NCBI GenBank assembly: GCA_951406725.2
Contig: OX597835.1
Location: 48,670,001 to 48,734,000 of the forward strand
Reading direction: 5' to 3'
From: Octopus vulgaris
Taxonomy: Eukaryota
DNA: 64,000 bases
Positions 51,945-57,211 of the stretch are shown one piece after another. A program made the translations under genes and the position numbers. The notes beneath the pieces were generated by a model. It was not told the origin of the DNA. It worked only from the letters and a program-made list of their open reading frames with translations, and did no database searches. The stretch's first letter is position 1; each line of letters begins with the position of its first letter.

Positions 51945-52887
51945 GCACATATATATATATATATATATATATACTTTACGTAAGTACATATATATTTCTA
52001 TATGTGTATATGTATACATATATGATATACATGCAGACAGTCAAGCGCGCACACGCACACGTATTAATGCACATGTTGAGGCTAATATAGTCTCAGATAT
52101 TTCCAGGTGTCTTATTACTTGATTTGCTTAACCAAAGTAAGCTACGTGATGCAGGAAGGTCAAGAGTGGAATGTTTATATTACTGTAAGTTATGTTAAGC
52201 GTTTGCTTTATGGAAGAACTTAGAGAGCAGAGTTCCAACAGTGAACCATAATCAAAACCAGCGCATTTACGCCAAACAAATTAAATATGAAATGTATTAA
52301 TCAAAATCGTCGCATATAATCTCATCTAACACACTTATGTTTGTGTGTGTGTGTGTGGATGTGTTGAGTCACTTCCGTCATGCACTTCCGTCGGACCTTT
52401 CTTTTCCGTTTCGCCGGACCTTTCCACTTTCTAAAAAAATGAGCTATGCTCGAAAAGTCACGCGCCATATTTTTTTTCCGTTTTCAACTGAGCCTCAGCC
52501 TAATACACTCACTGTACGCCACCTTGTGTTGTTTTTGTACCAGTGTGCGTGCGCGCATGCGTGTGCTGCTTGGTGGCAGTGTTGATGCGATCTCTGTATG
52601 TGTCTGGCTAAGGTGAATCTTTGTGCCCTGAGGGATGCATCTGTGTGTGACGGTGTATTTCTGTATGTGTGTGTAGCTGTGTGCGTGTCTGGTATACTGA
52701 CATACATGTGGTGCTATGTACCGGCGTCTGCCCACCAGTATAATTATTAATTTGCGCTTCTGTGTGTCTCTGCATTGATTTAAACGTAGGAATGTGTGCG
52801 CCTGTTTGTCTGTGCGTCTGTCTAACTGTTAAAATCTCTCAATACAGCAACACTCAAATGTAAACCTCCCAGCTTAAAACCTTTTTA

Positions 52888-52996
52888 TCCCATCCGAGGA
52901 GTCTTGTATGCACTGTGCGTTGCATCTGGTGTCATTGCATCGTTCCACACCCACGAGGGTGCAGTGCATCGTGAAGACGAAACAATTGTTGTGGGA
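52888..52996 (+). ncRNA. Type I hammerhead ribozyme-like motif (U4C core variant, ~80-nt stem II, palindromic stem III)
   Basis: Stem I TCCCAT/GTGGGA; core CCGAGGA 52894-52900; stem II GTCTT/AAGAC plus ATGCACTGTGC/GTGCAGTGCAT; GAAA 52979-52982; ACAATTGT; NUH triplet GTT. Confidence 0.7.
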
Positions 52997-53253
52997 ATAT
53001 ACATTTCTTGTTGGTACATTCCGTCTTCTCATTTTATCCTTAATATTTACTCAACATCCATCCTAGAATTCCTGGAATTTTAACAACGATGTTTGCTAAG
53101 GATCGCTGATGATGCCTGGTAGCCATAAGTGGTGAACGTGCTCCACAAACACACGACCTGGCACTTAGCGTTAAATAAGATTTCCATATTGTTTAACATA
53201 TTTCCTTAACCTTAATACTGAATTCTGTAACCTTATGTTTGGCTTATTGTATG

Positions 53254-53308
<55 letters not shown>

Positions 53309-53359
53309 GCACACATATATGTATCTGTGTGTATGTGTATGTATGTATGTATGTATGTA

Positions 53360-53535
53360 TTTGTTTCTGTCCTGAGACTGCGGCCATGCTGTGGCACCGA
53401 CATTCGAGAAATTTTTGTCGCAGGAATCGACACCGGTATTTATTTATTTTTTAAGCCTGATATTTATTCAATTGAGCCCTTTTGCCTAAGCGCTAATTTA
53501 CGGGATGTAAACATAACACCGGTTGTCAAGCGGTG
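53360..53535 (-). mobile_element. SINE family 3 tail fragment
   Basis: GACTGCGGCCATGCTG...ACACCGGTTGTCAAGCGGTG. Confidence 0.7.
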
Positions 53536-53978
53536 AAGCCTCCAAATTTCAAAATGGTGGTTTTTCCTTTGCGACGAGATAGTAGAAATGATTACCATTA
53601 TGTTAAGGCTGAGCTCTTTCCAAATTATATCTAAAGGTTTATATTTTAAATATAAGCTTAACAGTTTCACTGAGTTCTAGAAAAAAGTTTCCTGATTGTA
53701 AGCCATACGGCTGCCACGTCGTGGTATGTAAGTGCTACACGCAGAATATTCACACAGTCACAAACGCATGCGCGCACACACACACACACATACACATCTT
53801 AATATATATGTATAACGTTCGTACGTAACAACATGAACCTATGTATAAAATGATAAAATTATAGGGTGATAGATAGAGAGACAACTGGCTAGCTAACTAA
53901 ATAGATAGGTAGATACATACATACATAAATGCATACATACATAGACAGACAGGCAGCTAGATAGATAGATAGATAGAC

Positions 53979-54082
<104 letters not shown>

Positions 54083-54282
54083 TAGATGGCATGAGGAGTG
54101 ATATGTGAGACAGTTAAGAAAACAGAGAAGTCAACAGATTCTTTGTTCAATTGAGAAAATTGATAAATTCTCGTCAGCAGAATTTCTCGGGTATTATTTT
54201 ATGCCTGCTGAACATACAAACACACATACATAGCTATACACAAGTATGCGTGCGCAGGCGCACACAGACACACACACACATT

Positions 54283-54320
<38 letters not shown>

Positions 54321-54541
54321 TGTATGTTACAATGGTACACGCAACTATGTTTACATGTATCTTTAAGTGTATATAATAGCTATGCATGTTTATGCCTGAG
54401 GATTTTTGTGCCTCTGTATGTGTATGACTGTGTGTGAGAGGGAGAGGTGGGTATGTGTGTGTGTGGGCGTGTATGCATGCACGTACATTCGTGTGGATAC
54501 ATATATACTTACATATAAACATACTATGTATGTATCTGCAC

Positions 54542-54601
<60 letters not shown>

Positions 54602-54615
54602 ATGTATGTGTGTAT

Positions 54616-54659
<44 letters not shown>

Positions 54660-54672
54660 ACACATATATATG

Positions 54673-54707
<35 letters not shown>

Positions 54708-55003
54708 TTATCTTTATATATATATATTTATTTATTTACACGTATACGAGTGTATGTATGTGTGTGTGTGTATGCATGAGAATATATATAAGACAAGGAT
54801 ATAGAAATGAGCTAAGTCTAGAAATACCCCTTTCCCTAAATATGTAGTTTGAATTTTTCTTCTTTTTTTTGTTGTTGCAATAAATACTTATGCTACTTAC
54901 ATATGCTTACATACTCGCACACACACAAGTACACGCATATGTATGTATGTATATATACGTGCGTATATATATATACCTATATACATATACGTATAAATAT
55001 ACA

Positions 55004-55126
<123 letters not shown>

Positions 55127-55172
55127 GTATGTATGTGTATACGTATATGTATGTATGTGTATACGTATATGT

Positions 55173-55929
55173 AAATTATAAAGAATGCACAAAATTAAAG
55201 AACCATATACGTTTAGCACATATTAAACATGATAATTAAATACAAGCGAGTTTCTTTTAAAAAGACTTTTCCGATTTCACTGAAATCGATATGTAATTCC
55301 AAGACACCATGAATTTCTTGCTATACAAATATACAATATCGAAAAAGAGTTGTTAAACAAAACTAAAATAACAAAATCTTTTACACATGGAAGGATATAG
55401 GGTAAATGCACCAAGAAATAAGAGTAATATCAAACAAGAGCACTGAGAGAACGCAAACCTCTGCCAAGGCAACACCAACGTCCTCTCAACGATTAGCCAG
55501 GGATGATTTTTAGAACGAGAACGGTCGGGTTCATTTTTCGTATTCTCGTTTGTGAGAGCAGTCGAGTTTATTTCAGATATTCTCGTTCTAAAAATCATCC
55601 CTGGCTAATCGTTGAGAGGACGTTGGTGTTGCCTTGCCAGAGGTTTGTGTTCTCTCAGTGCTCTTGTTTGATATTACTCTTATTTCTTGGTGCATTTACC
55701 CCTATATCCTTCCATGTGTAAAAGATTTTGTTATTTTAGTTTTGTTTAACAACTCTTTTTCGATATTGTATATTTGTATAGCAAGAAATTCATGGTGTCT
55801 TGGAATTACATATCGATTTCAGTGAAATCGGAAAAGTCTTTTTAAAAAAAACTCGCTTGTATTTAATTATCATGTTTAATATGTGCTAAACTTATATGGT
55901 TCTTTAATTTTGTGCATTCTTTATAATTT
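55173..55929. repeat. Near-perfect inverted repeat: 349/350-bp arms, 58-bp spacer
   Basis: 55173-55521 is the reverse complement of 55580-55929. I count about 5 differences by eye. Confidence 0.95.
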
Positions 55930-56031
55930 TTATATAATTTTTTTTTACACGTTTATTTTCATTCCTCTCATTATCTTTATGTATTTGACAAATGAAAGAC
56001 GTAAGATGGAATATACGAGAATTTATTATTA

Positions 56032-56140
56032 ATCACGACAATTGTTTCGCCATATCTACCATCGATTCCTCGTGGGTGGGCGGACGCTCAACAACTGGTT
56101 CAGGATCATCCGGCGGAGCAGATGTATCTCATCGGGTGAT
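56032..56140 (-). ncRNA. Type I hammerhead ribozyme-like motif, second copy of the 52888 family
   Basis: Minus strand: stem I ATCAC/GTGAT; core CCGATGA; stem II G-C closure plus ATCTGCT/GGTAGAT; GAAA; ACAATTGT; triplet GTC. Confidence 0.7.
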
Positions 56141-56259
56141 AAATAAATACAATTCGTTGAAATAACTGTTCTGCAATGTAACATCTCATTTTGTAGAAAG
56201 AAAAGCAGCCAGTCGGAGGAAATATCTTCATTTGTGTAGAAGATCAAAAATTAAACCAC

Positions 56260-56848
56260 AGATGGCGAAAAGAGAAGCGAACACGCAATCCAGTGAGAAG
56301 AGTATTACAAATAACCGTTAACAAATATGGATGCATAAATGCCTTCAGGCAAGCTGAATGGTGTGAGTACACTCGCCCATATAAGCATCCGCATACGATA
56401 AATGTATATCTAAATGGTCATGCAGAGAAAACTGAAAACGTCCCTTGAGGAATCTCTCTATTAGTACAAATCTCTCTATAAGTATATAAATGCACCGCGC
56501 ACACAAGGGGAGAGCCGTATTCTTACATTGACGGCTGATCCATTTAAGAATCGTTATCGTAACCATGTTGCTGGTTTTAAGACAACCAACAAGAAACATT
56601 CAACAACTTTGGCAGATTTTTTATGGCGACTGAAGAAGGATAAAATGAAGTACAGCATAAATTGGTCCATAGTAAGGTACGCGAAACCATAGAATATAAT
56701 TTCCAGGAGATGCCGTCTCTGCTCCGATGAATCCCTGTCTACTCTGTAGAATAACCAGAAGACCGTTAATAGAATCTCTGAACGACTCTCGAGATGCCTA
56801 CACGTGTATAATTGTACTTTCGCACAATGCAGTGGGAATGAAATTTGA
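56260..56848 (+). pseudogene. Penelope-like element GIY-YIG endonuclease remnant (Naiad-type motif spacing)
   Basis: Manual translation across a frameshift and stops: SCREN*KRPL..VYKCTAHTRGEPYSYI/LTADPFKNRYRNHVAGF..STTLADFLWRLK..INWSIV..CRLCSDE..VNRISERLSRCLH. This matches the GIY-YIG plus CxxC/CxH pattern of PLE endonucleases. The 5' boundary is approximate. Confidence 0.75.
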
Positions 56849-56963
56849 GTAACCTTTAACAGAATTTAATTTACTTTTAACTTCGACATTCCTACAAACA
56901 CCAAGTAGATAGTTAACTCGCTTTGTGATCATGAGTGCACCAATATTCACTTGGTTTAATTAC

Positions 56964-57014
<51 letters not shown>

Positions 57015-57155
57015 GAGTGTATTTTACCTTGTTAACAATTAACACGGATAAATGAATGAATAGCTACCAGGGCAGCAAAATCTCACAAGTAAAGATGTTG
57101 AAACATATGTAGAAACAAAAAATACTTGTTTAAACCTGCGTTGACTCCATTTTTT

Positions 57156-57211
<56 letters not shown>

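Follow-up and report, generated by a model that had tools for sequence, protein, structure and literature searches.

Hammerhead motifs with a long stem II arm at the 3ʹ ends of Penelope-like elements in Octopus vulgaris

Two hammerhead-like motifs in a 64,000-nucleotide stretch of Octopus vulgaris DNA (hereafter the window) raise the question of what kind of sequence carries them and whether a stem II domain of about 80 nt defines a structurally conserved ribozyme form. The surrounding genome, that of an animal, measures 2.8 Gb and is rich in microsatellites. The canonical type I hammerhead core reads CUGANGA / GAAA / NUH, and both window copies meet it at all positions except U4, which is C in each. 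An earlier note on this DNA had located and described the two motifs correctly (Table 1). In copy 1, nucleotide 52990 is U17, and cleavage is predicted 3ʹ of it. Its stem II domain is predicted to comprise a proximal stem, an internal loop, an 8-11 bp stem, an apical hairpin and a side hairpin; the MFE fold contains stems I and II as the earlier note drew them, but with a z of only -1.26. Copy 2, read on the minus strand, has the core CCGATGA at 56135-56129, with C4 in the state of its family, stem I at 56140-56136 paired with 56036-56032, and C17 at 56037. The claim that its diverged stems still pair holds for stem I and fails for proximal stem II, which carries two mismatches (10.2 A-G and 10.5 C-A) and is unformed in the MFE fold, where the long stem II is missing altogether (z 0.04). 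A comparison with the Rfam hammerhead families, proposed in that note, gave no match: no family reached the gathering score for either motif, and a search of 52000-57000 at E<=10 returned no hammerhead family, only microsatellite-driven matches. Because the window copies are single, decayed and on opposite strands, little or no activity is expected there. They are old and probably no longer active, and in themselves they are ordinary fossils.

Table 1. Features of the two motifs and their host insertions in the window.
Feature	Position	Strand	Remarks
Copy 1 stem I, 5ʹ strand	52888-52893	+	pairs with 52991-52996
Copy 1 core C3-A9, CCGAGGA	52894-52900	+	C4 private to copy 1
Copy 1 stem II domain, 78 nt	52901-52978	+	predicted fold
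Copy 1 11-mer CACCCACGAGG	52948-52958	+	side-hairpin region; 2 positions off family A's commonest letter
Copy 1 G12-A15.1, stem III and U17	52979-52990	+	GAAA at 52979-52982
Copy 1 self-complementary stem III ACAATTGT	52982-52989	+	
Copy 1 stem I, 3ʹ strand	52991-52996	+	
Copy 2 hammerhead motif, family B	56032-56140	-	80-nt stem II domain, proximal stem damaged, ACAATTGT
Family A, 5ʹ-truncated 3ʹ end (3ʹUTR/pLTR, long tail) of old PLE	52536-53219	+	
(TA)n at 3ʹ end of family A insertion, likely target	53258-53299	none	
Family B, 3ʹ end (3ʹUTR/pLTR) of old PLE	55972-56393	-	
Inverted 5ʹ part of copy 2's own family B insertion	56405-56953	+	broken GIY-YIG endonuclease C-terminus
(TA)n closing family B insertion	56968-57007	none	
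Fragment of a third long-arm family (E)	57004-57164	none	94-98% identical to pLTR region of intact L317

The best explanation, and a probable one, is that the window motifs are the decayed, 5ʹ-truncated 3ʹ ends of two families of Penelope-like elements (PLEs) with a Hydra-type endonuclease, whose hammerhead has a lineage-wide arm of 50-80 nt and likely cleaves itself as a dimer in active tandem elements. The earlier note had missed this host, namely the PLE 3ʹ ends and the inverted endonuclease fragment beside copy 2, and had treated the two copies as one family; they fall into two different old PLE families, A and B. Dispersed copies like copy 1 are 80-87% alike (40 scored of 221 first-look candidates) and those like copy 2 are 85-88% alike (40 scored of 2547), both totals being first-look candidates and not copy numbers. 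Copies of A and B have variable 5ʹ ends, fixed 3ʹ ends at (TA)n and inverted pairs; the main 3ʹ end lies ~60-100 nt after G12, and a longer tail is optional. Long B copies extend into the RT thumb and the GIY-YIG endonuclease, and 4 of 30 family A loci extend into a related GIY-YIG endonuclease. The order is that of a PLE with a C-terminal endonuclease (EN+), RT and then GIY-YIG upstream of the motif, read in B from RT, thumb and endonuclease pieces and in A from the endonuclease alone. The pLTRs, 5ʹ truncation, inverted copies and optional tail of A and B, together with direct repeats around intact ORFs in sister families, agree with this host. Beside copy 2, the broken endonuclease C-terminus occupies ~56501-56839 and retains CxxC and CxH motifs; an inverted layout of this kind with an endonuclease fragment has been described for PLE insertions (PMC8557442). 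A Pfam search for GIY-YIG gave a weak match to one C-type copy (E 0.004, below cutoff) and none in the family B pieces, and a protein search with the broken B endonuclease matched nothing among longer proteins. None of the A and B copies examined reaches the N-terminus of the ORF, so the RWK/DKT region is absent from them. Naiad and Nematis assignments of the host were set aside in view of domain order and the linker motif.

Several further features accompany these insertions. The word ATTCCRTCTT is common to A and B right before the main 3ʹ end (53010-53030 and, on the minus strand, 56015-55990), and related words precede the family C 3ʹ end; it may indicate the point, described for PLE tails, where reverse transcription begins. 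A second core-like motif (CTGATGA, ~60 nt, GAAA and UU, with complementary arms GTATCG/CGATAC around it) is present in the long tail of family A, at ~53100-53185 in the window and more clearly in L018 and L013. It lacks a clean stem II and a palindromic stem III and is possibly a degenerate second long-arm hammerhead. The family E fragment, which sits inside the (TA)n closing copy 2's insertion, consists of an inverted tail and the 3ʹ half of a hammerhead, with GAAACATATGTA at 57100-57111 (+) and the palindrome ACATATGT. Elsewhere, ORF pieces of a non-LTR retrotransposon, read from translation and presumably RTE-like, adjoin a family A copy (L074:3963-9493).

The long arm is not peculiar to the window. 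An exact pattern of the form core-N(55-85)-GAAACAATTGTH matches the genome 2084 times, versus once in the reversed control, and the N(25-54) version matches 2462 times versus twice. With thousands of matches against one or two in controls, the motif is not due to chance, and chance is excluded as its origin. That short motifs have merely fallen together, or that the host has domesticated a ribozyme at this very locus, is accordingly hardly credible as a reading of the window. Copy 1 does have a better stem I than most of its family, a point in favour of this reading; against it, besides the match counts, both copies lie in truncated repeats 80-88% alike to others, and copy 2 is damaged in stem II. 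The patterns require the core but neither stem I nor stem II, and the individual matches described here are the first 100 of each. Core conservation in families C and D is partly circular, since these patterns required the core. Families A and B were retrieved by DNA similarity, independently of the core pattern, and have the commonest letter intact at every core position except for B's C4.

Across the families examined, intact elements and young 534-bp tandem arrays included, the arm measures 50-80 nt. It is 57-60 nt in the young family C (among the matches listed) and 49-60 nt in family D, where ~50 is typical and 60 is found in the subfamily D', and it occurs in every own-genome subclade whose motif could be located. 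Its apical loop lies far beyond the distance of the canonical loop 1-loop 2 contact. Short-arm families with the same CAATTG also occur in this genome (1924 matches vs 8). Among 78 related metagenome loci, 48 have a sense motif, in all cases with a stem II domain of 11-25 nt, as read with a scanner that allowed domains up to 120 nt and recovered 10 of 13 long ones from the octopus genome itself. That scanner found no motif in the remaining 30 of the 78 loci, which may include truncated ones; an initial metagenome scan had given no matches. Three of the metagenome relatives (L247, L251 and L271) show the U3-A8 core covariation already described for PLE hammerheads.

Conservation of structure is evident from pairing between families. 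The covariation set comprises 83 distinct matches in 13 clusters (among the matches listed). In stem I, 53 of 65 cells are paired against an arm-swap mean of 38.9, and at positions 2-4 of stem II, 34 of 39 against 18.5; none of 20000 arm swaps reaches the observed pairing in either stem. Because the clusters are related, and 8 of the 13 comprise one copy each, the arm-swap figure does not amount to a probability corrected for phylogeny; the L127 cluster pairs in neither stem. This covariation bears out the earlier proposal of a type I hammerhead form that is conserved in structure and whose stem II is very long. Within A or B, where the variation is neutral decay, RNAalifold finds no consensus structure, as would be expected. 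The stem II domains of four young copies (C, D and D') fold as long hairpins (z -4.0 to -4.9), whereas z is weak in the old copies, at -1.5 in copy 1 and +1.4 in copy 2, and in three copies of C type, which range from -1.1 to -2.2; both the RNAalifold null and these weak values count against the best explanation. Stem III is an 8-nt palindrome that is kept through substitutions: 17 motifs have a word other than ACAATTGT, and 13 of the 17 remain fully self-pairing. ACAAUUGU is common to more than one family, and other families have a different palindrome. The predicted energy of ACAATTGT is -6.4 kcal/mol as a duplex versus +2.4 kcal/mol as a monomer hairpin.

Whether the arm itself is selected is a separate matter. 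It is possible, if rather unlikely, that the long arm goes back to a neutral expansion of loop 2 in the past, with arm and C4 unselected and only the core-proximal pairs of importance, a reading compatible with the best explanation as far as catalysis is concerned. The variation of arm length from 50 to 80 nt would fit it, as would the thriving of short-arm CAATTG families in the same genome and the restriction of a CCCAC side hairpin, weak in several copies, to A/B-like families. On the other side, the folds of young arms are far better than those of shuffled sequences, both strands of the apical stem change in concert from one C subfamily to another (TGCAA/TTGCA vs TGTAA/TTACA), and long arms are found in every own-genome subclade with a locatable motif.

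The arm also contains short words of other kinds. In family C (L109-L138, L309 and L311), AATAAA or ATTAAA falls within the paired part of the arm, on its 3ʹ side, with ~25 nt between it and the predicted cut; in family B, AATAAA directly follows stem I instead. The apex of the D and D' arm, at the apical hairpin, reads GTAAGT or GTGAGT, which is the splice-donor consensus. Some PLEs have a spliceosomal intron in the pLTR. An intron donor in the arm is nevertheless unsupported here, GTRAGT being constant in D (among the matches listed) and absent in B, with no splice joint in 4 of 21 runs. In family A the donor-like site is mixed, with GTGCGT in 8 copies, GTGCAT in 8 and GTGAGT in 7 (n=33). 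The arm is likewise ruled out as coding sequence in family C, where the ORF starts ~265-290 nt after the core.

The earlier note had regarded a C at core position 4 and an identical 11-mer as conserved in both copies, and each claim stands in part. The family A alignment comprises 33 of 35 full-length matches (two near-identical duplicates dropped), and that of family B 51 of 52 matches (without one short copy; four had been retrieved with the 11-mer as pattern). These copies are the best matches to the window copies, and the counts therefore lean towards window alleles, not away from them. Position 4 is T in 30 family A copies, C in two and a gap in one (n=33); in family B it is C in 40 of 51 and T in 11 of 51, and 8 have G5A. 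The B changes C4 to T and G5A match what CpG decay has done at the other CpG sites of this family. Because the columns differ in this way, C4 is ancestral in B and a private change in copy 1; its sharing by the two window copies is a coincidence, and C4 as such is real in family B and other lineages. The 11-mer CACCCACGAGG occurs exactly twice in the window, against 0.17 expected (an expectation with up to one mismatch). Of the 33 A copies one has the exact word, as does one of the 47 B copies that were retrieved independently of it; the perfect match of the two window copies is partly coincidence. In the same region A and B agree in their commonest letter at 8 of 11 positions. This looser motif is conserved in the lineage, related words being present in several further old copies, frequently within a little side hairpin, and is absent from the young families C and D.

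In young families, position 4 can be followed further. The pattern anchored on D and D' gives 2030 matches with U4, 67 with C4 and 2 with A6G; the 67 represent 38 loci by our own count, in several sub-lineages, and amplification of few lineages inflates the C4 count. A6G belongs to the same mutation class as U4C, yet is found only twice, a scarcity to be expected if catalysis matters. Both repeats of intact L317 carry C4, and so does the metagenome locus L248. C4 is thus compatible with mobilisation, given its presence in D/D' lineages and in L317. A tie of C4 to C17 holds in B and D, but L317 combines C4 with A17. Predicted mispairing of core nucleotides 4-6 with stem III in D/D' is 0.58-0.89 for C4 versus 0.20-0.43 for U4 (11 vs 7 distinct copies). 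U4C is a natural variant of a viroid hammerhead, with an activity that is lower in vitro and enough in vivo (PMC3088659); the substitution is the same, though here whole subfamilies of retroelements have it as their commonest state. In the best explanation U4C is a tolerated core variant, probably a slower one. That U4C lowers activity in vitro, yet C4 lineages are widespread, counts against this explanation.

The autonomous relatives of these fossils are still at hand. Intact ORFs turned up in the genome when the N-terminus of a homolog served as protein query. In L312 (903 aa) and L317 (775 aa), a motif with a 55/56-nt arm lies on both sides of the ORF, giving a unit in which one RT-endonuclease ORF stands between terminal repeats that both carry the long-arm motif. 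Of 12 intact elements examined, four others (L309, L310, L311 and L315) have it on one side, and six have no long-arm motif within the range scanned. Unit length is ~3.7 kb for L312 and ~2.9 kb for L317, and the 3ʹ UTR of family C exceeds 1.2 kb. Upstream of L316 there is a short hammerhead, but (TA)n lies between it and the ORF, and it is probably part of another insertion. Many Hydra-type ORFs are intact (775-1072 aa; L279-L299 and L308-L319), and some are near-identical on several contigs, which suggests recent or current activity.

Hydra-clade PLEs are described as having a CxCX5C endonuclease linker, no CCHH, and CxxC/CxH (PMC8557442). Two B copies (L071 and L077) and the family C ORFs have the CxCX5C linker, no CCHH, and CxxC/CxH flanking E and N. 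RWK and DKT are also present in the family C ORFs and in intact relatives of the clade of A and B, and insertion into (TA)n is found for A, B and related copies. A regular-expression search for the linker found none in L312, L315 or L317. In a FastTree restricted to own-genome and metagenome relatives, all own-genome pieces and two homologs form one clade apart from the metagenome loci (support 1.0); A and B are each recovered, and the relation between them is weakly supported.

A second, non-autonomous form of the motif is found in family D, which consists of young 534-bp head-to-tail units, each non-coding and with one type I long-arm hammerhead. These arrays (L159-L170 and L186-L192; G000 C1:40931793-40938492 and many others) often contain an inverted part and account for ~2100 motif matches; family D sequence is also present in runs labelled as three organisms. 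The units have no match to PLE proteins. From its sequence and layout, family D looks like a non-LTR retrozyme, and its motif and insertion layout would link it to the PLE clade. Metazoan non-LTR retrozymes likewise consist of head-to-tail units with one type I hammerhead (PMC7229834 and bioRxiv 10.64898/2026.07.22.740005). It is family D, not the window copies, that resembles them, and its arm of 49-60 nt differs from the short helix II of retrozymes. The head-to-tail joint of family D is present in contigs of all 4 runs, and since one of these is likely a DNA run, tandem DNA explains the joint. In the same contigs (4 of 21 listed runs, with no run recorded as RNA), no splice joint was found, only the tandem joint.

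The closest known systems share most of this organisation. Hydra-clade PLE hammerheads are type I, lie in sense at the 3ʹ end/pLTR, and have a near-palindromic stem III and (TA)n insertion; the elements have a C-terminal endonuclease with CxCX5C, CxxC and CxH, and RWK and DKT in the RT (PMC8557442). The motifs in File S2 of that report have a stem II of 3-7 bp, loops of 3-10 nt and a CUGA core, in contrast to the 50-80 nt and recurrent C4 found here, and intact units here can exceed the length 'generally <3 kb' given there for the clade. With the min-HHRs of metazoan PLEs (Cervera and de la Pena 2014, PMC4209133), the present motifs share the pLTR site, palindromic 15.2-16.2, the dimer model, and many dispersed truncated copies and inverted pairs. 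The min-HHR descriptor of that work specifies a stem II of 3-7 bp, a loop of 3-10 nt, GAAANNUH and cuganga, which upholds the earlier expectation that short-stem searches would miss these motifs: the window motifs, with domains of 78 and 80 nt, do not fit it in the lengths of arm and stem III, and C4 families depart from it in the core as well. The long-arm motifs also differ from the variants of PMC4209133 in having no extra nucleotide between 9 and 10.1. The nearest arm in length is that of spike-moss PLE-X1 hammerheads (29-35 nt loop 2, marked as deviating from canonical in PMC8557442 File S2), which belong to an endonuclease-less plant element in rDNA, comprise two single consensus entries and are set beside this lineage by arm length alone. 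PLE-terminus hammerheads, palindromic stem III, retrozyme arrays and U4C are each known already; what is new is the 50-80 nt stem II arm. A full-text literature search found no lineage with such an arm, one PLE variant survey and some supplements, which could list long-arm or C4 motifs, lying outside its scope. A term search of the main text of a 2026 octopus repeat annotation (PMC13282606) found no mention of ribozymes.

Cleavage of dimers has been reported for metazoan PLE hammerheads (PMC4209133), and the model applied here draws on that work and on a review (PMC6765202). Read-through transcription of a tandem pLTR-ORF-pLTR locus, or of an array, would put two motifs on one RNA, and their palindromes would pair to complete stem III. 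Each motif would then cut 3ʹ of H17 and free a unit-length RNA, which may circularise and then be retrotranscribed into (TA)n. The first 4-6 bp of the arm would close the core like an ordinary stem II, the rest being a hairpin extension that likely carries other element signals; the long arm would be tolerated because the core is closed as usual. The location in terminal repeats, stem covariation, retention of the palindrome and rarity of A6G are observed points in favour of this mechanism, in which the cleavage itself is predicted. In the active PLE Poseidon, however, catalytic mutants leave in vitro insertion unimpaired, and RNA-seq reads have no ends at the site (PMC11167929).

These Poseidon mutants would fit an unlikely alternative, in which the motif would serve above all as a fold for recognition or processing by the protein of the element itself or by host machinery, with slow or incidental cleavage and the arm as the working part. 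The spread of C4 in B, D, D' and both L317 repeats would agree with it, as would the greater predicted mispairing of C4 cores in D/D', the short distance from G12 to the main 3ʹ end, and the AATAAA/ATTAAA and GTRAGT words in the arms of C and D. Such a role does not readily account for the scarcity of A6G beside U4 and C4 in D/D', for arms that are very different in sequence and length between families, or for a palindromic stem III that is maintained, and no splice joint appears in the contigs of 4 runs. Dimer self-cleavage in tandem elements is the preferred reading.

A bolder and doubtful proposal is that stem II has turned into a separate RNA domain of 50-80 nt that carries processing or recognition signals and gates cleavage, with U4C repeatedly picked as a brake that mispairs the monomer core, and that this domain lets intact elements mobilise a large non-coding retrozyme family. 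Candidate arm signals are the poly(A)-signal word of one family, the splice-donor word of a second and, in A and B, a conserved CCCAC side loop. If stem II is such a gating domain, this would be a naturally regulated hammerhead that exists in thousands of copies and has an autonomous partner of its own. In PLEs, hammerheads cleave poorly in vitro, and the motif was dispensable in an in vitro insertion assay (PMC11167929). The octopus genome offers natural variants that bear on their role, namely families that differ in arm length but agree in stem III, otherwise near-identical young copies with U4 or C4, and intact autonomous elements together with a tandem non-coding family. Moreover, thousands of motifs can escape counts made with a descriptor, a point of relevance to elements reported as hammerhead-less or, like Naiads, as having only 'half cores' 35-50 nt apart (PMC8557442).
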